Below, in pieces: positions 30,873 to 49,968 of a DNA stretch of 55,635 nt (its first letter is position 1; every line of letters begins with the position of its first letter). This stretch comes from an uncultured Candidatus Saccharibacteria bacterium (GTDB taxonomy: Bacteria; Patescibacteriota; Minisyncoccia; Phycocordibacterales; UBA9973): the NCBI GenBank assembly GCA_964439045.1, contig CAYTMO010000002.1:1-55635 (forward strand). Direction: 5' to 3'. The notes beneath the pieces were generated by a model that saw only the letters and a list, made by a program, of their open reading frames with translations, ran no database searches and was not told where the DNA came from. A program made the translations under genes and the position numbers.

Positions 30873-31089
30873 TATTTAGTCTTTCGTGAAAATAAACAAC
30901 ATCTTGCTTTGTGTAAAAAATCTGTTAAACTCACATTATGATTAATATAGTTTTAAATTTAATATTCCGCCGAAGAGCAACTTCAAACAATTTGAGGTCG
31001 CTTAGAGTGTTTAATTAAAAACTTAACTAAATTATATTAAATTTTCAAAAGCGGCCTTAAGGTCGTTTTTTTGTTCTTTTAGCCTTGAG

Positions 31090-31136
31090 TTTGGTGATTT
31101 TAGAAATCATCTTATTTGATTTTTAAAATCACCAAA
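31090..31136. repeat. long AT-rich hairpin
   Basis: TTTGGTGATTTTA/TAAAATCACCAAA 13-bp perfect arms with an inner AAATCA/TGATTT pairing. Confidence 0.6.
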
Positions 31137-31147
31137 TTCCTGCAACA

Positions 31148-31297
31148 ATGAATTTTTTTAAGAGATTTTTTCTAAGCTCCAAGGGGGCAATCAACAAAAA
31201 AAAAGAGCCAAATAAAAAAACTACTGACCAAAAAAAGAAGCTTAGAAAGCTTCGAAAGTGGGACAAAAGAGACAAGCAATCTCTTCCGACTGGGTAG
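31148..31297 (+). CDS. candidate small Lys-rich protein (49 aa)
   Basis: MNFFKRFFLSSKGAINKKKEPNKK... is followed by a plus-strand terminator. Confidence 0.3.
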   Translation: MNFFKRFFLSSKGAINKKKEPNKKTTDQKKKLRKLRKWDKRDKQSLPTG

Positions 31298-31310
31298 TAG
31301 ACTTATCACG

Positions 31311-31345
31311 ATTCCCTCACTTTATTAAGGTGAGGGAATTATTTT
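31311..31345 (+). terminator. intrinsic terminator overlapping the uvrC stop codon
   Basis: ATTCCCTCAC/GTGAGGGAAT 10-bp stem then TATTTT. Confidence 0.7.
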
Positions 31346-32664
31346 AAAAAATTCTTATTTCGTTTTTGTTTATGGAAATTAATAGCAAATCTATGAGACT
31401 CGGCGTTCAATGCTATTATTTCTTTTTTATACTTTTGAGCTATTGTAGTGTCTCCTAAAATTTCTCTGGCTTTATGTTTATCATCTTTTACCACTCCTAC
31501 AACTGGGATATTTAGTTTAAAATCTTGTAAAACTTTCTTAGCTACATTTACCTGCATAATGTTTCCATCTACTACTATCAAACTAGGTGTATGCCACTCT
31601 GTATGCTTAAATCTTCTTTCCAATACTTCTCGGAGCGCTCCTGTATCATTTGCATTTTGCTGACTTCTAATAATGAACTTTTTATATTCATTTTTTTCTA
31701 ATTCACCGTTTTTCGATACCACCATCACCCCCACCATATTCTGCCCAGACATATGAGCAATATCGTAAGCTTCTATTCTAAGAGTTGGATTAGCAAGACT
31801 TTTTCGAGCAGTGGTGCTGTGTAACAGAATATCCCGAGAAAAAGTCTTGCTGACAGAATCATCTTTAATCAAAGCCACATCATTAATATGCCCTAAAGCG
31901 AAAATCTGTCTTTTTATCTCCCCTGCTTTCTCAAATTCTTTTTGCTTTGCATACAATTTCATTTCTTTTTGCAAACTTTTTAAAATTGATTGCTTTTTGC
32001 CTTCAAAAAAAAGTTTTATGTTTTTGATATTTTTTAGCAAAATTTCTTTTTGTTCTGGAGCAAGTTTTATTTGTCTATAAAATTCATATGTTCCTTTGAC
32101 TTTAGACTTTTCATCCAAAAATGGAAATATCTTTCGTACTAATTCCAAAGCAGTTTTGAGTTGAGAACCATTGGGGAATGGGCCGTATATATTTGTGAAA
32201 GAAACAGGGAAATTTTTCGTCGCGTCGGAGCCCTTTAGGGTAAAATGCGAAAAATTTCCCTGTTTCTGTAACTCTTTGCCTCTCACTATCAAAACTTTCG
32301 GCAACTCTTCTTTGGTAATACAAACATAATTAAAGCTCTTATCGTCTTTTTCTTTTGTATTAAAGTATGGCTGGTATTTTTTAATTAAGCTCGCTTCAAG
32401 TATCAAAGCTTCTAGAACACTATCAGTTTCCTGCCATTTTATACTATTTGCTCTAAAAACCATTTCTAAAATTAGTGGCCCACGAGTTTCGATCAAATCT
32501 TTACTAAAATAACTTCGTACTCTGTCTTTCAGGCTTGTTGCTTTACCGACATATAACAACCCCCCACCTTTATAGCCCCCTTCGCCAAGCTTCGTTGGGC
32601 CAAGGAAAAAGTAAACTCCAGGTTTTTCTGGCAAATTAAATTTTTTAAAATCATTTAATTTCAT
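31339..32664 (-). CDS. uvrC: excinuclease ABC subunit C, short form without C-terminal (HhH)2
   Basis: GIY-YIG (PGVYFF...LLYVGKATSLKDRVRSYF), UVR motif (FEKAGEIKRQI), endonuclease domain ending HRFAINFHKQKR. 441 aa. Confidence 0.9.
   Translation of the reverse strand: MKLNDFKKFNLPEKPGVYFFLGPTKLGEGGYKGGGLLYVGKATSLKDRVRSYFSKDLIETRGPLILEMVFRANSIKWQETDSVLEALILEASLIKKYQPYFNTKEKDDKSFNYVCITKEELPKVLIVRGKELQKQGNFSHFTLKGSDATKNFPVSFTNIYGPFPNGSQLKTALELVRKIFPFLDEKSKVKGTYEFYRQIKLAPEQKEILLKNIKNIKLFFEGKKQSILKSLQKEMKLYAKQKEFEKAGEIKRQIFALGHINDVALIKDDSVSKTFSRDILLHSTTARKSLANPTLRIEAYDIAHMSGQNMVGVMVVSKNGELEKNEYKKFIIRSQQNANDTGALREVLERRFKHTEWHTPSLIVVDGNIMQVNVAKKVLQDFKLNIPVVGVVKDDKHKAREILGDTTIAQKYKKEIIALNAESHRFAINFHKQKRNKNFLK
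32200..32267. repeat. inverted-repeat-bounded in-frame element inside uvrC
   Basis: Perfect 20-bp arms AGAAACAGGGAAATTTTTCG/CGAAAAATTTCCCTGTTTCT. The core contains GTCGGAGCCC and GGGTAAAA. Confidence 0.8.
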
Positions 32665-32667
32665 AAA

Positions 32668-35394
32668 TTACTTTTTCTTTAGAACTTTCTTTAAATACTT
32701 GCCAGTGTAGCTGTTTGTATTATTTGCCACTTCTTCTGGTGTGCCTTTAGCAATCAACTTTCCACCATTTACTCCTCCCTCAGGACCAATATCTATAATA
32801 TAGTCAGAACACTTTACTATGTCTAAGTTGTGCTCAATCAATACAACTGTATTACCTTTGCTTACAAGCTGATTTAAAACTTCAAGGAGTTTTGCCACAT
32901 CATCATAATGCAATCCTACTGTAGGCTCGTCTAATAAGTAAATAGTCTTTTCTAAATGTGGACGATATAATTCACTAGAAATCTTTACTCTTTGTGCCTC
33001 ACCACCTGAGAGAGTGGTGGCAGATTGACCAAGCTCCAAGTATCCAAGACCCACATCCATAAGAGTCTTTAATCTATCTGAAATAGCCGGAATATCTTTG
33101 AAAAAAGTTAACCCTTCTTCTACAGTCATTTTCAAAACTTCATAAATATTTTTCTTTTTGTATTTTACTGTAAGAGTTTCCTTATCAAATCTTTTACCTC
33201 GACAAACATCACAAGTCACATACACAGTCGGCAAGAAATGCATTTCTACTGCTATCTCTCCATTGCCTTCGCAAGCTTCACATCTACCACCTTTTACATT
33301 AAAAGAAAATCTATTGGCCTTCCATCCACGAAAACGAGCTTCTTCTGTCTCAGCAAACAAATCACGAATATGAGTAAATGTCCCAGTATATGTGGCAATG
33401 TTACTTCTTGGAGTTCTGCCTATTGGAGACTGATCTATAAGAATTGCACGAGTTAAATACTCTGTACCAGTGAATGAAGCACAGTTAAATACTTGCGCTG
33501 TCCGGTATTTCCTCTCAAGTCTGCCTTGCAGATTTTTATATAAGATCTCATACATAAAAGAACTTTTACCTGAGCCAGAAACTCCGGTGATAGAAGTCAT
33601 CACGCCGAGCGGTACTTCTACATTCATATTCTCTATATTAAAAACTTTTCCTCCAACAATACGAAGCACACCTTTCGCTTCGCGTCTTTTCTCTGGAATT
33701 TCTATTCTTGCTTCTTCGCGAAGATACGCAAGTGTGCGAGAATTATTTGTATTCTTTTTTGCAGTAAGCAATTCATCAAGCCAACCTTGAGCAACGACGT
33801 CTCCTCCGTGCACTCCAGCCTTCGGACCAATGTCTACAATGTAATCCGATGCATAAATAGTATCTTCGTCGTGTTCTACTACTAAAATAGTATTTCCCAA
33901 ATCTCGCAAGTTAAGTAATGTTTTTATCAGTCTATCGTTGTCTCTCTGATGCAATCCTATCGTTGGTTCATCCAATACATAAAGCGCACCTACAAGCCTA
34001 GAACCTAGTTGTGAGGCAAGGCGTATGCGTTGCGCTTCTCCACCTGAGAGGGTGTTTGCTTTACGAGAAAGTTGCAGATAGTCGAGTCCCACATCAAGCA
34101 TAAAAAGAAGCCTTGCTTCTATCTCACGAACCACAGGTAATGAAATTTCTTTTTCTTGATCTGTAAGTTTTAAATTTTTGAAAAATTGATAGGCCTCTGC
34201 AATAGACAAAGATGCAAGGTCTAAAATATTTATTTTATCTTTTACTTCTTTTTTATTCTTAACACTTTTATTTTCTTTAGTATTTTTATTTTCTAAAGTA
34301 TTGCCAGTCAAAAACACATTCAATGCTTCTTTTCTAAGTCTTGCGCCATTGCAAGAATCACAAGGCTCATCCCCTCCGAAATACTTTGAACCCAAGCCGT
34401 TACAATCTGGGCAGGCACCATACGGAGAGTTAAAAGAGAAAAGTCTTGGCTCTACTTCTGGAAAAGAAAATCCATCATTCTTACAAGCAAACTTTGCAGA
34501 CATTACGAATTCTTCTGTACCTATTTTTATAGTTACCAATTGATCAGATTCTAAAAGAGACCTTTCAAGTGCTTCTGCAAGGCGCGCCCTGCTCGCATCT
34601 TTATTATCGACAAATTCGTGTACTAAAAAATGGTCTACTAAAATATCTATATTATGTGCTTTATTTTTAGAAAGGGTTATTTGTTCGCGCAGCTTTTTCA
34701 TCACACCGTCTAGGCGGATTTCTGAGAATCCTTTGCCGAGCAAGTCATATAGAAGCTGATAGTATTCTCCTTTGCGTCCACGAACAATTGGAGAAAAAAT
34801 ACTGATTTCTGTCTCATCCCATTCTACGCCCATTACTTTTCGTTTTTTATTTGCAGGAACTTGGGAAGCAAAATCCTGATCCGTGTCGGAGCCCGTCGGA
34901 TTTTGACGGGTAAAACGGGCAGAATTTTGCTTTCCAAGTTCTTTGATTTTCTCAAGTATAAAATTTAAAATTTCTTCATTAGAAAGTTTTTTAATTTCTT
35001 CGCCACATTGTGGACAATGCGGATGCCCAATACGAGCGTACATCACACGCATATAGTCATATATTTCAGTAATAGTAGCTACGGTAGAGCGAGGGTTGTT
35101 GGATCTTGATTTTTGATCTATAGAAATAGCTGGAGAGAGTCCCGTGATTTCATCTACATCGGGCTTGGGCATTTGATTTAGAAATTGTCTTGCATAAGAA
35201 GAAAGACTCTCTACATACCTCCTCTGCCCTTCGGCAAAAATAGTATCGAAAGCAAGAGAGCTTTTACCAGAGCCTGAGACGCCAGTAATAACCACCATTT
35301 TGTTTCGTGGCATTTCTACATTTATATTCTTCAAATTGTGCGTCCGTGCACCCCTCACTATGATGCTATCATGCTTGTTTAACTTTTCTTTCAT
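32668..35394 (-). CDS. uvrA: excinuclease ABC subunit A
   Basis: [34 protein letters not shown], two ABC modules and zinc modules. 908 aa. Confidence 0.97.
34857..34941. repeat. inverted-repeat-bounded in-frame element inside uvrA
   Basis: 18-bp arms GAACTTGGGAAGCAAAAT/ATTTTGCTTTCCAAGTTC (one G-T). The core has GTCGGAGCCC, a CCCGTC/GACGGG hairpin and GGGTAAAA. Confidence 0.8.
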
Positions 35395-35464
35395 ATATAT
35401 TCCTTAAACAACAATTATAGCAGAAAAATCAATAAAAATCTCTAAATATGATATAATCAGAAAT

Positions 35465-37144
35465 ATGAAAGAAGATAGCCTTGAGCAAAGAAAGCCGGCA
35501 TCAAAACAAGAAATACAAAAGATAAAACAACAATCTAGAGATGAGCTGGCTGGAACTATCCGTGAATCTAGAAGAAACCGAGATGAAGAATTAAAAAAAC
35601 TCGAAGAAGCAAAAAAGAGATTTTTTAAATTTTTATCCCTACAAAAAGACAAACCAAAAACAATCATACAGGAAATAAAAAACAAAGAAGGCGCTACAAG
35701 AAGATTATTAAAAGAAGGAAAATACGAAATTGATTTACAGGAAAAACTTCTATTGAAAGAGAGGGAGCAAGTTTTATATTCAACTATTATTGAACCTTTA
35801 TCTAAAATAAAAAATCTAATCTTAGATTATGAAAATCGAGATGAAGTTAAATCAATCTCAAAAAACTTCAGTGAAGAAAATTTCAGAATCTTTATGTCTG
35901 AAAAAGACCCAAATGAGGTTGGAGCTATAATTATAAAAATATTCGACCTTCTAAAAACCTCTAAATACTCCGACGCTTTCTATCAAAAAATAATTAATCT
36001 TTCAGAAGATTATTTTGAAGAAATTGAAGCTTTCTTACCAAACAACTTTCATTCTTTTTACAATGCTGAATTTATAAACAATTTAGTAGGTGCTCAATCT
36101 TTCACAGAGGGAAACCTGCCGGATGAAAAAATAGTCGAGGCTATTAAAAGCTTTGAACCATATTACAAAGAACAGGTTTCTTGGCAACACAGATACTCAA
36201 AGTTATCAAGTTTAACAAACTTCATATTAATTAAAGGACCTGACAGCCTAAAGGAGTGGATGAAAGAACAAATAAAAAGCGAAATAGAAAAAGAAAACTT
36301 TTCTATTATACCTATATTTAATAATTTTGATGTAGGATCCTCTCTTGAACTTGAAAAGGTCTTTGAAGAAAATATTTTCCAATATACACAAAAAAGATTT
36401 AGCATATCCAAAGAAGACTTTTTCTCTGCAGGGCATTCAAACACGGAAATATACTGGTCCGAAAACTTAAAGACAATGTGTAACATAGAACGAAAAATTA
36501 CTGGTGGAGTAAAAAGGTTATTAAAAGATTACGGGATTCATGAGTTCAATCGTCACCCACAAAAAATATTGATAAATCAATTAAAAGAGGAAAGCGTGGA
36601 TAGACCTTACGGAGTTGTGATATATCCACACAGTGACCATAACAATAATTTTGATAAAAAAGATACTGTCTTTAAAAATTTTTATGAAAAAGATAAAAAA
36701 AATCGTCTATTAAAGGTATTTGAAGTTGGTAGTAATCATGATCTTTTAAAATACTTAATAAAACTAAAAAGAAAATACAAACACAAAATATCATATCTTA
36801 TACTAGGAGGGCATGGCAGTACGGAGGGAGTCGAATTTGCCGATATGTTTATGTCTTACAAAGCCGGTACAAGTCAAGGAGAGTTAACAAAAGATGTTTT
36901 AGATAAAAGAGAAAAAACTCTTAAAATGATATCTGAATTTTTTACTCCAGACGCGACCATAGTCCTTGTGTCTTGTTCTACAGGAGCAGAAGGAGGGTTC
37001 GGAAGTAAACTTAGAGATAAAATAAATTTAAGAGTGTTGGCTCCAAAAGAAGATAGTAATCTAAAAAAACTAGAATTCAAAGACGGGAAGCTCGAAGTTG
37101 AGTATAATGTAGAAAAAAATGTATTTAACAAAATAGAAGTATAA
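35465..37144 (+). CDS. hypothetical protein with coiled-coil N-terminus and C-terminal His/Cys (GHG...SCS) domain
   Basis: LILGGHGSTEG ... IVLVSCSTGAEGG resembles clan-CD or DUF4347-like dyad spacing. Inference only. Confidence 0.65.
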   Translation: MKEDSLEQRKPASKQEIQKIKQQSRDELAGTIRESRRNRDEELKKLEEAKKRFFKFLSLQKDKPKTIIQEIKNKEGATRRLLKEGKYEIDLQEKLLLKEREQVLYSTIIEPLSKIKNLILDYENRDEVKSISKNFSEENFRIFMSEKDPNEVGAIIIKIFDLLKTSKYSDAFYQKIINLSEDYFEEIEAFLPNNFHSFYNAEFINNLVGAQSFTEGNLPDEKIVEAIKSFEPYYKEQVSWQHRYSKLSSLTNFILIKGPDSLKEWMKEQIKSEIEKENFSIIPIFNNFDVGSSLELEKVFEENIFQYTQKRFSISKEDFFSAGHSNTEIYWSENLKTMCNIERKITGGVKRLLKDYGIHEFNRHPQKILINQLKEESVDRPYGVVIYPHSDHNNNFDKKDTVFKNFYEKDKKNRLLKVFEVGSNHDLLKYLIKLKRKYKHKISYLILGGHGSTEGVEFADMFMSYKAGTSQGELTKDVLDKREKTLKMISEFFTPDATIVLVSCSTGAEGGFGSKLRDKINLRVLAPKEDSNLKKLEFKDGKLEVEYNVEKNVFNKIEV

Positions 37145-37154
37145 ACAAATAATT

Positions 37155-37631
37155 ATGGAAACAATTGTAAAAAGTGAAAAAGAATATAAATTAGGAGATA
37201 GTGTGACTCAAAAAAATATAATAAGTTTTGCAATTACCAGCTTTGCTATCTCAAGAAATAAAATGGACGCACAAATCTTATTTGTGGATTGGTTTATTAA
37301 AAGTAAAGCAAGTCAGAATCTGGGCGAAAACCCCGCAGACAAAGTACTATCAATGTATGAAAAGGCAATGGATAATGAACACAAAAATGAAAGTGTTGCG
37401 CAAATAATGGAAGCTTTTAATAAAGTCCAAGCTCATAACACTGGGCCTTCTGGTAAAGATTATGTTTTATCAAATTTTACAAAAGATTTTGAACAAGCTG
37501 TGACAACTGTAAAAGAAAGCAGATACGCTGATAATGTATTATGGTTTAATCTTGGAGTTGATTCAATTAATGTATACAATATGTCAAGCAGAGAGTTTAT
37601 AAACGCAATTAGTCCTTTATTTACAAAATAA
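37155..37631 (+). CDS. hypothetical protein (158 aa)
   Basis: ORF 10 nt after the preceding gene. No motif recognised. Confidence 0.55.
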   Translation: METIVKSEKEYKLGDSVTQKNIISFAITSFAISRNKMDAQILFVDWFIKSKASQNLGENPADKVLSMYEKAMDNEHKNESVAQIMEAFNKVQAHNTGPSGKDYVLSNFTKDFEQAVTTVKESRYADNVLWFNLGVDSINVYNMSSREFINAISPLFTK

Positions 37632-37636
37632 TTGAT

Positions 37637-39868
37637 TTACTTTTCCATCCTCTCTCTCAACACCCCTATCTCATCCCTTAGTATGGCTGCAGTTTCAAAG
37701 TCGAGTTCTTTGACGGCTTTGTTCATTTCCTTTTCTTTAATTTTAATTATCTTTTCATAGACTAGGCTAGTCCTCTCTTCGTCGGACATATGGAGCTTCA
37801 CTTCGGTTACATTGCCATCTTTTGTTTTCTTTTTAGTTACTGTGCTTTTGTCTAATGCGAGCTCTTTTGCATAAGCTTTTTTAAATACTTCAAGATCAAT
37901 AGAAAGCTCTGCGTTCACTGCTTTGCCGTGCTCGCTCTCCATAGCTTCGGTAATGTCTTTTATATTTTTCAAAATTGTCTTTGGGGTGATGTTATGTTTT
38001 TTGTTATAAGCTAGCTGAGTATTCCTCCTCCTGATAGTCTCTTTCAAGGCGCGCTCCATCGAGCCAGTAATCTTGTCTGCATAGAGTATCACTCGCCCTT
38101 CGCTATTTCTCGCTGCACGGCCTATAGTCTGAATGAGGGCAGTCTCACTCCTTAGGAATCCTTCTTTATCAGCGTCGAGTATCCCAATAAGTGCTACTTC
38201 TGGCAAATCTAAACCTTCACGAAGAAGGTTGACTCCTACTAACACATCAAATTTCCCTTTTCTGAATTCGGTTAGAATTTTTATTCTGTCTATTGTCTTT
38301 ACATCACTGTGCAAATACTCTGACTTAATTTTCTTATCTTTCAAGTATACAGACAAATCTTCTGCCATCTTTTTCGTAAGTGTAGTCGCCAAAACTCTAA
38401 AACCTCTCTTGATTGTATTTTCTGTTTCTTTTATAAAATCTTGAATCTGGCCGGGGTAATTTGAGCTCTTCGAAATGTGTTCGGAAGAATCTCCGCTACG
38501 AACAGAACTATCTTGCCCTTCCAGGGCAGAATGCGAATCCTGGAGAACATCTTTCGAAGAGCTAGCAGCCACAGGTCGAACAATGGTCTCTGGATCAACT
38601 AGCCCTGTCGGACGGATGATTTGCTCTACTATCTGCTCACTTTCTTTTCTCTCTACATCGCTTGGGGTTGCACTAGTGTATACTACTTGCCCGATTCTCT
38701 TTTCAAATTCAGGATATTTCAAAGGCCTATTATCCTTCGCAGAAGGAAGACGAAAACCGTATTCCACAAGTGTGTTTTTGCGAGAAGCATCGCCTGCATA
38801 CATACCATTTAATTGAGGCAAAGTTACGTGTGACTCATCAATAATAGTTAAGAAATCAGGTTCTTTGTTTTTTGTATGAGGGAAATATGAAAGCAAAGTT
38901 TCTGGTGCTTCGCCCTCCTTCTTACCAGAGAGGTGTCTGGAATAATTTTCTATACCAGAGCAATACCCCACTTCTTTAATCATTGCCAAATCATAATTAG
39001 TTCTTCTTTTGATTCTTTCTGCTTCTAAGAGCTTTCCTTCTTTTTCAAAATATTTGAGCTGAGCTGCCAATTCCTTTTTTATATTTGCTAAAGCAATTTT
39101 AGTTTTTGAATCTTCGGTGATGAAATGCTTAGTCGGAAAAACATAAATATCTTTTTCTTCTGCTAAGATTTTTGAAGACACAGGATCCACTTTTAAAATC
39201 TCTGAAATCTTCCCTCCTGACATCTCAATGACGTACATAAAAGTATCAGACACAGGCACGAATTCTACTTTAGAACCAATAGAGCGAAACTGCCCGGAAG
39301 AAAGGTCTGCATTAGTCCTTTCAAAATGAATTTTGATTAAACTTTTCATTAATGTAGTCCTATCCATTTTCATTCCTACTGAGAGCTTAAGATTTTCTTT
39401 CTCATATTCTTCTGGTGAACCTAAACCATAAATACAAGAAACAGAAGCGACAATGATGACATCACGACGAGTAAGGAGGGCCTGAGTGGAAGCGTGGCGA
39501 AGGCGGTCTATTTCTTTGTTTATCTGCGCATCCTTTTCTATATAAGTATCAGAGACGGGCATATATGCTTCTGGTTGATAGTAATCATAATAAGACACGA
39601 AGTAATGCACCGCAGCATCAGGGAAAAATTCTTTAAACTCTTGTGCAAGTTGTGCAGCGAGAGTTTTGTTATGCGCTATTACAAGAGTAGGCTTGTTCCA
39701 CTTGGCTATGACATTTGCCATTGTGAAAGTCTTACCTGTACCTGTAGCACCGAGCAATGTCTGCTTTCGCATACCTTTTTCTAAGCCTTTCATAAGCTCC
39801 GAAATAGCCTTCGGTTGGTCCCCGGCTGGCTCGAATTTACTCTTCAATTTAAAAATACCTTCAGACAT
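37637..39868 (-). CDS. uvrB: excinuclease ABC subunit B with Ser-rich insertion
   Basis: GATGTGKTF, DESHVT, helicase C motifs and C-terminal UVR (FETAAILRDEI). 743 aa. Confidence 0.97.
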   Translation of the reverse strand: MSEGIFKLKSKFEPAGDQPKAISELMKGLEKGMRKQTLLGATGTGKTFTMANVIAKWNKPTLVIAHNKTLAAQLAQEFKEFFPDAAVHYFVSYYDYYQPEAYMPVSDTYIEKDAQINKEIDRLRHASTQALLTRRDVIIVASVSCIYGLGSPEEYEKENLKLSVGMKMDRTTLMKSLIKIHFERTNADLSSGQFRSIGSKVEFVPVSDTFMYVIEMSGGKISEILKVDPVSSKILAEEKDIYVFPTKHFITEDSKTKIALANIKKELAAQLKYFEKEGKLLEAERIKRRTNYDLAMIKEVGYCSGIENYSRHLSGKKEGEAPETLLSYFPHTKNKEPDFLTIIDESHVTLPQLNGMYAGDASRKNTLVEYGFRLPSAKDNRPLKYPEFEKRIGQVVYTSATPSDVERKESEQIVEQIIRPTGLVDPETIVRPVAASSSKDVLQDSHSALEGQDSSVRSGDSSEHISKSSNYPGQIQDFIKETENTIKRGFRVLATTLTKKMAEDLSVYLKDKKIKSEYLHSDVKTIDRIKILTEFRKGKFDVLVGVNLLREGLDLPEVALIGILDADKEGFLRSETALIQTIGRAARNSEGRVILYADKITGSMERALKETIRRRNTQLAYNKKHNITPKTILKNIKDITEAMESEHGKAVNAELSIDLEVFKKAYAKELALDKSTVTKKKTKDGNVTEVKLHMSDEERTSLVYEKIIKIKEKEMNKAVKELDFETAAILRDEIGVLRERMEK
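38464..38563. repeat. inverted-repeat-bounded in-frame element inside uvrB
   Basis: 12-bp perfect arms AGCTCTTCGAAA/TTTCGAAGAGCT, central palindrome TGCCCT-tcc-AGGGCA at 38514-38528, and TGCGAATCCTGGAG motif. Confidence 0.75.
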
Positions 39869-47508: not shown

Positions 47509-49968
47509 CTACTTCACCTCTCCAAAGTTATCCCCCGAGCCGTAGTGCACTATAAGTGGTATATCTGTTTTGTATTTTAAATATGACCTTGTAAGCACAC
47601 CCTCCATTGCTTCAGATATTACTTTTTCTGCTTTTGTGAGGACGGTTTCTTCTATCTCATAAACCAACTCATCGTGAATCTGGAGCATAAGATGTGTTTT
47701 GTCTAAAAGTCCAGCTTTCGCCAAGTCTTCTTCTGCATAGCGAATAGCGAGCTTGATGATGTCGGCTGTGGCTGTGCCTTGGACTGGTGCATTAATAGCA
47801 GTGCGCTCTGCCATACTTTTCAAGAATGGAAGCCTGGAGTTTATATTTGGGAAATATCTCCTTCTGCCGAAAAGTGTCTCCGTATAAGTATGCTTCTTGG
47901 CATATTCTTTAACACTTTCTAAATAATCCCTCACACCAGAGAATTGATTAAAGTAATTATCATAAAACTTCTGCGCTTCTTCGCGAGTACCACCCAAGTT
48001 CTTACGAAGCGCAGAGACTCCCATACCATAAATAATTCCGAAGTTTATAACTTTTGCTTTTCTTCGCATTTCACTATCTACCTTGTCTATCGGTACTCCA
48101 AAAACAAAAGACGCCACCCCTGCGTGAATATCCTTTTTATCTTTAAATATTTCTGTCATCTTTTTATCTCCAGAGAGCATAGCCACCACTCGGAGCTCTA
48201 TCTGAGAATAATCAAAAGCTACAATCTTGTGTCCTTTTTCTGCAATGAAACCATTTCGAATTCTTTTGCCTAGCTCTGTCTTGATAGGCAAGTTTTGCAA
48301 ATTAGGATCTTGAGAATTAAATCTGCCTGTCGTAGTCGCATTTTGCACAAATTTAGAATGGAGTCTGCCATCCTCGCCCACCATAGCTGGAATCACATCT
48401 ACATAAGTAGAAAGCAATTTCTGTAATTCTCTGTATGCCATTATTTCTGTGATTATTGGATTGTCTTCTTCGAGCTCTTCTAATACTGATATCTTGGTAG
48501 AGAGGTTGCCACTGGCGTTTTTCTTTTTGGTGTTTTTGATACCTATTTTTACAAACAAAACTTCACTTAATTGTTTTGGAGAATTAATATTGAATTCGCT
48601 ACCTGCCATTTTATAAATCTTTTTTGTAAGTTTGTCTAACTCTGTATGATATTCTTTAGATAAGTTTTTAAAATACTTTTGGTCTATCAGGATTCCGTGC
48701 TTTTCCATTTTGTCTATTATTGGTATTATTGGCTTTTCTATTTCTTCATAAACTTTTTCCAAATTGTCACCCTTTAATCTTCCAAATATGTATTCTTTAG
48801 CTGTTTTGAAATCTTTTGTTTTAGCGTAATTTAAAATATCTTCTAACTTTGGATTGGAAATATCAGAATTCAAAAGCCACAAAGCTATAGAAGTCTCGTG
48901 AAGCTCTTTTGGGTCTACGTCTTCAGTAATTTCTTGCGGATTCTGGAGTAAAGAATTCTGTGTGTCTGGTTGAGCCTGCTCTTTTTTAGAATGTTGTAGA
49001 GGTGTCCCTAAGACCTGCGGATTCTTTACTCCAGAATCCGAATTACCATTCCCAAAAAAGGTTTTAAGCCTTGAGAACAAACTACGAAATTCAAACTCTG
49101 TAAAAACTTTTTCTATCTTACTCAAGTCTGCATTCTCCCAAAATGTTTTTTCTGGAATTTTAAAATCAATTGGTGCATCTTTGCGAATTGTTGCTAATGT
49201 TTTAGAAAACAATGCTTCTTCTTCATTGTCTTTTATAAGTTCAAAAATTCTAGGGGTGATGCCAATATCTTTAAAGACTTTATTATCTTTTTCTTTTTTG
49301 AAAGTTTTATAAAGATTCTCAATAGTTTGAAATTTATTTATAAGAGTAGTCGCAGTCTTCTCTCCTATACCTTTGATACCAATTATGTTGTCAGATGTAT
49401 CCCCTCGGAGTCCTTTGTAATCTGGGAGAAATTCGGGCTTAAAGCCAAACCTTTCTACAACCTTTTCTTCATCATAAAGAATCGTATCTGTTATTCCTTT
49501 TTTCAAGGTATAAACTTGCACCTTTTTATCATCAATAAGTTGCATTGTATCCATATCACCAGATGCAATTATGATATTAATGCTTTTATCTTTTTTAAAT
49601 TGTTCTACTATCGTACCCAACACATCGTCTGCTTCAAATCCTGGTGCATCATAAATAGGGATATTAAAAGCTTCAAAAATCTTGCGAGAGCTAATAAGTT
49701 GAGAAATAAGTGCATCATCTGCTTTTACTCGACCAGCTTTATAAGCATCGTAAGCAATATGACGAAAAGTCTTTTGCGGTAGATCATAACAAGCCACAAT
49801 ATAATCAGGCTTCAAGTCTGCAATTATTTTCATCAACATATTAGATACACCATAAAGCGCGCCTGTGGGCTCCCCACCCGAAGACAAAAAATCTGGCAAT
49901 GCGTGATACGCACGATGAATAATCGCGTGAGCATCAAGAAGTACTAAAAGCTTAGGTTTGTCTTTCAT
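47509..49968 (-). CDS. polA: DNA polymerase I
   Basis: 5' nuclease N-terminus, DYSQIELRVVA and QIHDELVYE family-A motifs. 819 aa. Confidence 0.97.
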   Translation of the reverse strand: MKDKPKLLVLLDAHAIIHRAYHALPDFLSSGGEPTGALYGVSNMLMKIIADLKPDYIVACYDLPQKTFRHIAYDAYKAGRVKADDALISQLISSRKIFEAFNIPIYDAPGFEADDVLGTIVEQFKKDKSINIIIASGDMDTMQLIDDKKVQVYTLKKGITDTILYDEEKVVERFGFKPEFLPDYKGLRGDTSDNIIGIKGIGEKTATTLINKFQTIENLYKTFKKEKDNKVFKDIGITPRIFELIKDNEEEALFSKTLATIRKDAPIDFKIPEKTFWENADLSKIEKVFTEFEFRSLFSRLKTFFGNGNSDSGVKNPQVLGTPLQHSKKEQAQPDTQNSLLQNPQEITEDVDPKELHETSIALWLLNSDISNPKLEDILNYAKTKDFKTAKEYIFGRLKGDNLEKVYEEIEKPIIPIIDKMEKHGILIDQKYFKNLSKEYHTELDKLTKKIYKMAGSEFNINSPKQLSEVLFVKIGIKNTKKKNASGNLSTKISVLEELEEDNPIITEIMAYRELQKLLSTYVDVIPAMVGEDGRLHSKFVQNATTTGRFNSQDPNLQNLPIKTELGKRIRNGFIAEKGHKIVAFDYSQIELRVVAMLSGDKKMTEIFKDKKDIHAGVASFVFGVPIDKVDSEMRRKAKVINFGIIYGMGVSALRKNLGGTREEAQKFYDNYFNQFSGVRDYLESVKEYAKKHTYTETLFGRRRYFPNINSRLPFLKSMAERTAINAPVQGTATADIIKLAIRYAEEDLAKAGLLDKTHLMLQIHDELVYEIEETVLTKAEKVISEAMEGVLTRSYLKYKTDIPLIVHYGSGDNFGEVK
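48937..49040. repeat. inverted-repeat-bounded in-frame element inside polA
   Basis: Perfect 20-bp arms CGGATTCTGGAGTAAAGAAT/ATTCTTTACTCCAGAATCCG. 10-nt direct repeat TGCGGATTCT at 48935 and 49016, exactly 81 nt apart. Confidence 0.8.

Follow-up and report, generated by a model that had tools for sequence, protein, structure and literature searches.

The uvrA gene of an uncultured Candidatus Saccharibacteria bacterium (GenBank assembly GCA_964439045.1, contig CAYTMO010000002.1) contains an in-frame 85-bp segment bounded by inverted repeats (34857-34941), and the locus raises the question of what such a segment is, how it came to lie within a conserved enzyme, and what keeps its two arms complementary. 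We analysed the 55,635-nt stretch that holds the gene (positions 1 to 55,635 of the contig, hereafter the window) together with related genomes and metagenomes. By its relatives, the organism belongs to the Patescibacteria and is of Paceibacteria/Nomurabacteria type. The answer that we regard as probable is a translated, selfish palindromic DNA element resembling the Rickettsia palindromic elements (RPEs), but with arms that were made and are kept by replication template switching; the uvrA segment is one copy of a dispersed family of small palindromes of Paceibacteria (Patescibacteria), lying in frame in a permissive loop of UvrA.

The host gene (32668..35394, minus strand, from the list of open reading frames (ORFs) and its translation) encodes a protein of 908 amino acids (aa), whose homologues are named excinuclease ABC subunit A and which solved UvrA chains match at E 6e-110. 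The inverted repeat comprises two 22-nt arms, 91% complementary, with 41 nt between them. Its three parts lie on the minus strand, i.e., that of the messenger RNA (mRNA): a gene-upstream arm (34920..34941, GAACTTGGAAAGCAAAATTCTG), which is native uvrA sequence and encodes ELGKQNS at the end of a helix; a GC-rich core of 41 nt (34879..34919, cccgtTTTACCC-GTCAAAATCCGAC-GGGCTCCGACacggat); and a gene-downstream arm (34857..34878, CAGGATTTTGCTTCCCAAGTTC), which encodes QDFASQV and is an inverted copy of the upstream arm. Within the core, a short CCG/CGG stem, an internal loop of TTTA and CTCCGAC, and a CCC/GGG stem lead to an apical hairpin (CCCGTC-7 nt-GACGGG, 34892..34910, strand not assigned), which is the variable part. 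An original prediction, made from the letters of this stretch alone, had noted the segment, this inner CCCGTC/GACGGG hairpin and the motifs GTCGGAGCCC (34885-34894) and GGGTAAAA (34908-34915), all of which lie where it placed them; the 18-nt arms with one G-T pair that it described are real as well, and form the outer part of the full 22-nt arms around the 41-nt core. The mRNA strand of the segment folds at -42.6 kcal/mol (z -7.3) and the opposite strand at -50.6 kcal/mol (z -7.8), with none of 200 shuffles folding as well in either case.

Comparison with other UvrA proteins bears out the proposal that the segment was added to an ordinary UvrA, and corrects its extent. In solved structures, the helix at query residue 148 is joined to the conserved strand at query residue 193 by 2-4 residues, versus 44 in the window protein, and alignment to the sequences of these structures places the insert at the junction between the helix that follows the first zinc module and the initial strand of the next domain. 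The ORF stays open across 34857-34941, which gives ~24 residues beyond ordinary UvrA. An AlphaFold2 model of UvrA residues 1-339, built on a shallow alignment, was too poor to be informative (mean pLDDT 45), and the coil that it shows at 160-183 was given no weight. Among 120 homologues of 81-100% identity, the insert also occurs in an independent assembly, in a 98% identical gene (P0002), whereas the next relatives, 94% and 92% identical, have a clean empty site; the insert is therefore not universal in UvrA, as close relatives are empty. At the DNA level, the empty alleles lack 72 nt rather than the whole 85, namely the core, the gene-downstream arm and ~9 nt, and keep the counterpart of the upstream arm, which aligns with ..VLAKN.. 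of the two empty alleles L001 and L002. A chance palindrome, or a snap-back chimera produced by assembly or amplification (some amplification methods are known to generate inverted chimeras), is effectively refuted by the same insert in the independent assembly, by its presence on ~100 contigs from NCBI, JGI, ENA and Logan, always in frame and with the same core, and by statistics that exclude chance.

A survey of the same UvrA site across 84 sources (the window and loci L001-L083) revealed a long hairpin exactly there in ~20 of them, with cores that differ. The window and L041 carry the window-type core in sense orientation, L067 and L083 carry it in antisense, translated as RVGAPVERVKR; other sources carry related cores (B to E, which share ..ACCC-hairpin-GGGMYCC..), a short CCTACGACGG core, or further ones, and these different core families sit in arms with the same boundaries. 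A UvrA tree from which this site was masked shows filled alleles intermingled with empty ones at its tips, and one uvrA allele, that of L029, is an L004-type allele from which the core has been lost between two copies of GAATTC. It could be argued that the loop itself is adaptive, selected for contact with UvrB or DNA, the palindrome being incidental. The insert does align to the beginning of the domain next to the first zinc module, which in Geobacillus UvrA is reported to bind UvrB, and many relatives have some insert here. However, the inserts at this site have unrelated peptides and differ in frame, orientation, core family and length, the nearest relatives have none, the same DNA core recurs in a dozen unrelated enzymes, and what is conserved is the nucleotide sequence and not the peptide, all of which leaves an adaptive loop very improbable.

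The core is indeed widely dispersed. A pattern search of 1.46 Mb of related genomes returned 11 copies, and a metagenome scan with the pattern TTTACCC..GGGCTCCGACACGG returned 101 stretches (loci L084-L184), nearly all of which carry flanking complementary arms; on viral contigs, a shorter pattern (without the last four bases) gave 10 matches, none with arms, which served as a chance control. Removal of duplicates left 76 distinct copies, from Paceibacteria genomes and metagenomes. A covariance model combining sequence and structure (R1), built from 51 copies of which none came from the window, defines what we call family A. It matches the uvrA copy end to end (34865..34934, minus strand; 63.4 bits, E 8.2e-13, all 63 model positions), and the uvrA copy thus combines a match to a model derived from independent copies with a core flanked by complementary arms of its own.

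On the mRNA strand, the copies follow one order: an outer arm, AAAWTTY, CCGC, TTTA, a variable hairpin between CCC and GGG, CTCCGAC, ACGG, the inverse of the inner arm and the inverse of the outer arm. The unit common to the copies thus consists of the AAAWTTY inner arm, CCGC, TTTACCC, a variable GC hairpin, GGGCTCCGAC and ACGG; CCGC and the A/T inner arm lay outside the search pattern, yet are conserved in at least 90% of copies. The apical hairpin exists in a few discrete variants (GCAAGC, TAAA, GTCAAAATCCGAC, TCTCTWCGG and AGAGTACT). The strict family-A core is found at most 2-3 times per contig, on contigs of 112-593 kb, which suggests a handful of copies per genome. Matches to the element were absent from the phage and plasmid collections searched by blastn.

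The window holds a second member of the family, in the neighbouring uvrC-like gene (31339..32664, downstream of uvrA), which is assigned by Pfam UvrC domains. This copy (32195..32272, minus strand) has 25-nt arms unlike those of uvrA in sequence and a 28-nt core, TTTACCC-TAAA-GGGCTCCGAC, and encodes GNFSHFTLKGSDATKNFPVS; R1 matches it over 32204-32264 (55.2 bits, E 8.3e-11), and the next match in the window is an ordinary terminator hairpin at 26.9 bits. The exact 10-mer GTCGGAGCCC recurs once in the window, within the uvrC-like gene, and the motif pair GGAGCC..GGTAAA occurs twice (in uvrA and uvrC) against 0.06 expected, a count of two that none of 100 shuffles reached. When the two loops are aligned locally with gaps, the comparison by which the original prediction proposed that their kinship be judged, the best score is 11; 58 of 20000 shuffles attain this score, as do 142 of 20000 GC-matched segments of the window. 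The common origin that it had suggested is upheld in that both copies match a model built from independent copies and that the core recurs in many unrelated genes; it concerns the core only, as the arms are locus-specific. Among the closest relatives, the uvrC site is empty in L002 and holds only an arm remnant in L001. We considered this short hairpin of L001 as a precursor of the element, and found it less likely to be one than to be a deletion remnant, its downstream arm being nearly intact. The window's UvrC-like protein itself has 441 aa and no C-terminal helix-hairpin-helix domain by Pfam, and its relatives have 413-439 aa; bacterial UvrC usually has ~600 aa, with a helix-hairpin-helix tail.

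The hosts of family A are varied. Ten were identified by a Pfam scan (IleRS, LeuRS, LigA, UvrD/PcrA, BipA, the CCA-adding enzyme, PurH, MnmA, an RluD-like protein and a XerC/D-like recombinase), and UvrA and UvrC add to these, the window copies by domain or structure match and other loci by flanking sequence, giving at least 12 enzymes in all; frequently, the same loop of the same protein is occupied in different genomes. Long ORFs contain 58 of the 76 copies (49 in sense, 9 in antisense), and every one of these 58 is open through the element. The other 18 lie outside long open frames, many of them just past the end of a gene, and none looks like a split gene. An example of such placement is locus L118, with two intergenic copies of the family core (805-860 and 1650-1705; arms AAAAAATCTTGA / TCAAGATTTTTT), each just past a gene end and between an A-run and a T-run in the manner of bidirectional intrinsic terminators; the first follows an ORF that resembles ftsH by eye, and the arms recur in ~10 other contigs. 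This locus was also considered as an autonomous parent of the family and rejected, since the two copies are inverted, 850 bp apart and intergenic, flank a tRNA gene and a small ORF, and are accompanied by no transposase.

The same core is read in three sense frames as well as in antisense, with unrelated peptides as products (RFTLKGSD, ALPASGLRHG, PLYPQAGSD and RVGAPEERVKR), and one core in several frames and orientations giving unrelated peptides makes a function of the protein segment very unlikely. The apical variants are distributed according to the frame: TAAA would introduce a stop if read in frame 2, and all 11 copies that carry it are in frame 0; of the 19 sense copies with GCAAGC, 17 use frame 2, giving the mild peptide KNSAALPASGLRHGQNFS. 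The open frames, together with variants that avoid the frames in which they would introduce a stop, support, at the level of sequence, the view that the ribosome reads through the element and adds ~24 residues without a conserved sequence.

Contrary to the core, the arms are specific to each copy. They have a median length of 19 nt over the 76 copies (range 9-28; 24 pairs perfect), and only the inner ~7-10 nt are common, sequences beyond ~14 nt from the core being unrelated between copies. Among orthologous copies of the window type (n=9), 96% of cells pair, and 17 of 25 pairs (22 outer-arm pairs and the 3-bp CCG/CGG stem) have changed on both sides, with none changed on one side only; similarly, orthologues with B/C cores (n=10) show 12 of 23 pairs changed on both sides and no one-sided change. 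Such two-sided changes without intermediates are what template switching predicts, as is the occurrence of the core in both orientations at the UvrA and LeuRS sites. A third expected trace is found in uvrA, where the empty alleles of L001 and L002 retain native sequence matching the upstream arm and have neither core nor downstream arm, and also in uvrC by comparison with L002. Insertion of a core into a palindrome that already existed in uvrA and uvrC was rejected because the empty alleles have no palindrome there.

These observations also bear on the possibility that the element acts as a structured RNA in the uvrA mRNA, e.g., as an RNase III site, a pause or attenuation signal, or a signal for ribosome bypass or splicing. 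The very stable fold would fit such a role, as would the preference for sense orientation in ORFs (49 to 9) and the terminator-like placement of the L118 copies after gene ends. On the other hand, antisense copies are found at the same protein sites, and the preservation of the frame and the avoidance of stops would be needless if the segment were removed or bypassed. The stems change on both sides with almost no G.U intermediates, and the arm mismatches on the mRNA strand of the 58 intragenic copies are A.C in 28 cases (16 and 12 on the two arms) and G.T in 7, an excess opposite to what is expected of an mRNA stem that tolerates G.U; this strand asymmetry could reflect coding or compositional pressure, or a relevant hairpin that forms on the other strand. 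In addition, Rfam 15, searched at permissive E-values over 31000-36000, yielded only microRNA-like hairpin noise far under threshold (E 0.65-9.6), and a scan for intrinsic terminators did not flag the intragenic uvrA element. We therefore consider an RNA function quite unlikely.

Taken together, the data are best accommodated by a selfish palindromic element in which the core alone would be the mobile unit; the upstream arm is host coding sequence and the downstream arm an inverted copy of it. This copy may have been made, lengthened and kept complementary by polymerase template switching, the nascent strand folding back on itself. The self-complementary inner arms (AAATTT, GAATTC), which are direct and inverted repeats at once, would allow a core to be deleted, flipped or replaced from another copy, and selection would merely filter the sites, frames and peptides that the host protein tolerates.

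Family A is only one component of a larger population of hairpins. A general scan of the 1.46 Mb, open to all long-armed hairpins with loops of 12-70 nt, identified 173, versus 4 in a shuffled control; they cover 0.97% of bases, 126 lie entirely inside long open frames, and they fall in more than 10 core families, several of which occur within one 55-kb window (greedy k-mer clustering of the cores chained unrelated families and was used only for the tally of coding versus non-coding hairpins). The present window alone contains five, of which uvrC has two and uvrA, uvrB and polA have one each. The uvrB hairpin (38464-38563, minus strand, in frame in uvrB at 37637..39868) has 19-nt arms (AGCTCTTCGAAATGTGTTC / GAACATCTTTCGAAGAGCT) around a 62-nt core (..attcgcattctgccctggaagggcaag..gtagcggagattc..); L001-L003 and ~20 further genomes have this core at the corresponding uvrB position, within arms that are particular to each. 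The in-frame polA hairpin (48937-49040, minus strand, polA at 47509..49968) has perfect 20-nt arms (CGGATTCTGGAGTAAAGAAT) and a 64-nt core resembling the GGTCCTCGG..CCAGACC core family, which is common in related genomes. The second uvrC hairpin (31792-31851), also in frame, with perfect 14-nt arms and a 32-nt core, encodes SKTFSRDILLHSTTARKSLA; it is found in L001 and L002 too and is hence not polymorphic among the closest relatives, and ~20 loci have a hairpin at this position. Outside the window, a second uvrA slot, ~550 aa from the C-terminus, is filled in L013 (1180-1237), L018 (11002-11067), L027, L042, L053, L057 and L059 by hairpins with GC-rich arms such as CCCCAGCCAGACCTAGGG and an A-rich loop, gcaaatagtaaaaaacaaaagt; in the window, this stretch of UvrA lacks a long-armed hairpin. 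Relatives also show other recurrent in-frame repeat peptides, namely PSL(I/D)KEG(A/V)GGGNSKK...KGGE, KPARNA(S/L)(R/H)SDAGGE and SPSPSQGEGRGEV (from L012 and L028 at the uvrA site, L054 and L035 in uvrC, and L014 at the uvrA site), which are probably translations of further repeat families.

Across the 84 sources, hairpins reach 4.3 per 10 kb in UvrC, 2.0 in UvrB, 1.5 in UvrA and 0.7 in PolA, versus 0.11 in the other long ORFs of the same loci (9 hairpins in 784 kb), and within each gene they concentrate in a few recurrent slots; the same trend is seen, with small numbers, in loci that were not chosen through uvrA. This excess in the uvr genes and polA is the reason why a function at the level of DNA stays the main rival. 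On this view, a host protein would recognise the core as exposed on an extruded cruciform or hairpin, and the core would be kept preferentially in genome-maintenance genes; it might serve as a signal for DNA uptake or for recombination, as a priming site or as a nucleoid site. The densities fit this idea, as do the conservation of the core whatever its frame or orientation and the patchy alleles on the UvrA tree, which suggest exchange by recombination. The uptake sequences of Neisseria and Haemophilus show a similar bias towards genome-maintenance genes, and are found in terminators as inverted pairs. However, such sequences represent a single short motif in each genome, repeated about once per kb, as opposed to the many coexisting core families found here, several of them in a single 55-kb window, and to the far fewer strict family-A cores per contig. 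Moreover, close relatives do without the element and core-deleted remnants persist, and we regard a functional DNA site as unlikely.

Several findings nevertheless weigh against the selfish-element interpretation. Neither a transposase nor an autonomous parent that could mobilise the core was found. Direct target-site duplications abutting the 76 hairpins were not found either: nine of 4-5 nt were seen against ~4 expected from a permuted control, and none was longer. The recurrent slots are limited in number (one loop of UvrA, two of UvrC, and a single site each in LeuRS, MnmA, the CCA-adding enzyme and RluD) and could represent few, old insertions rather than ongoing transposition. The excess of sense over antisense copies is explained only in part by the arithmetic of open frames, and the 10-40x density in uvrA, uvrB, uvrC and polA is not obviously predicted by random insertion followed by filtering. 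Finally, the cores of orthologous copies are 92% identical and their arms 67-69%, in a set of orthologues chosen by similar peptide; the difference mainly shows that core classes are discrete, and a constraint on core nucleotides, i.e., a function, is possible.

A further hypothesis is that the cores are transposase-free loop cassettes housed in a few old, locus-specific hairpin slots of housekeeping genes, chiefly those of nucleotide-excision repair. Gene conversion or replication template switching through their self-complementary A/T inner arms would let them move, flip or replace one another, and would also duplicate the flank of the host gene in inverted form, a mirror image of the direct duplications of classical transposition. 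In a stronger version, the cores would be kept as functional DNA sites tied to genome maintenance. We view such cassettes as a tentative alternative that is possible, if on the whole unlikely.

Among known systems, the selfish-element reading finds its closest parallel in the RPEs, small palindromic repeats of a reduced genome that lie in frame in many housekeeping genes, are read through as extra surface peptides, have no known transposase, and each carry an ORF encoding a conserved peptide (PMC10969869). What is shared is an in-frame palindrome in unrelated genes whose ORF is kept open, as it is in all 58 intragenic copies in at least 12 enzymes. RPEs measure ~100-150 bp and are conserved between copies as whole elements, arms included, whereas here only a 35-60-nt core with ~7-10 nt of inner arm is common, the long arms are copy-specific and copied from each host gene, the core is used in several frames and both orientations, and the peptide is not conserved. 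RPEs also belong to another phylum, and no sequence relation is known, the comparison being one of descriptions only. The element is thus closest to RPEs in behaviour, though not a member of the RPE family.

MITEs and REP/REPIN elements (Correia, ERIC, BOX, REP-RAYT) are likewise short, non-coding, hairpin-forming and multi-copy, and have subfamilies, to which the discrete apical variants correspond; some intergenic copies resemble terminators and occasional intragenic copies are in frame. In contrast to MITEs, the element has no direct target-site duplication, its flanks being inverted and not direct copies, and no long terminal inverted repeats common to the copies, which share only the 7-10-nt A/T inner arm AAAWTTY; this could equally be a target preference. 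REPs are palindromes of 20-40 bp that are extragenic by definition, whereas about three quarters of our copies (58/76) are intragenic. The stem foot of the copies lacks the conserved GTAG or CGTC tag of REPs, and no related insertion sequence or RAYT gene was seen, although no search aimed at RAYT was made.

Template switching is known to create hairpins in one event and to keep stems paired (PMC8794818), to homogenise the arms of inverted repeats and invert their spacers (PMC8604942), and to expand arms (PMC13100816). Hairpins of this origin thus resemble the element in being inverted copies of adjacent sequence, with arms homogenised without one-sided intermediates, spacer inversion and arm expansion. 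An ordinary hairpin of this kind, however, has a local and unique loop, whereas here the loop is conserved across many loci and genomes; as the loop is common to many loci, something besides template switching must carry or copy the core between them. A more distant parallel is offered by the mitochondria of Nematomorpha, in whose protein-coding genes long near-perfect inverted repeats occur, with functional proteins translated from both arms (PMC6649704). Both arms there encode conserved portions of the proteins and the abstract mentions no shared mobile core, whereas here one arm and the core are extra loop residues and the core is a dispersed repeat. A literature search for elements of this kind in Patescibacteria or the candidate phyla radiation retrieved nothing relevant.

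Patescibacteria genomes are small and thought to be repeat-poor, yet ~1% of the DNA sampled here consists of hairpin insertions, mostly inside conserved enzymes, with consequences throughout the group for gene calling, the alignment of proteins, the prediction of structures and phylogenetic markers. A common core with target-copied arms, no direct duplication and no transposase would point to spread or maintenance by errors of replication rather than by an enzyme. The elements also mark permissive loops of essential enzymes and show arbitrary peptides filtered by reading frame, and their concentration in uvrA, uvrB, uvrC and polA raises a possible link between palindromes and excision repair in these organisms.

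Finally, the region between uvrB and uvrA in the window (35465-37631) holds two ORFs on the plus strand (559 aa and 158 aa, with no Pfam match). In the closest relatives (L001-L003) uvrA directly follows uvrB, and judging from this gene order the region looks like a recent 2.2-kb insertion into the operon.

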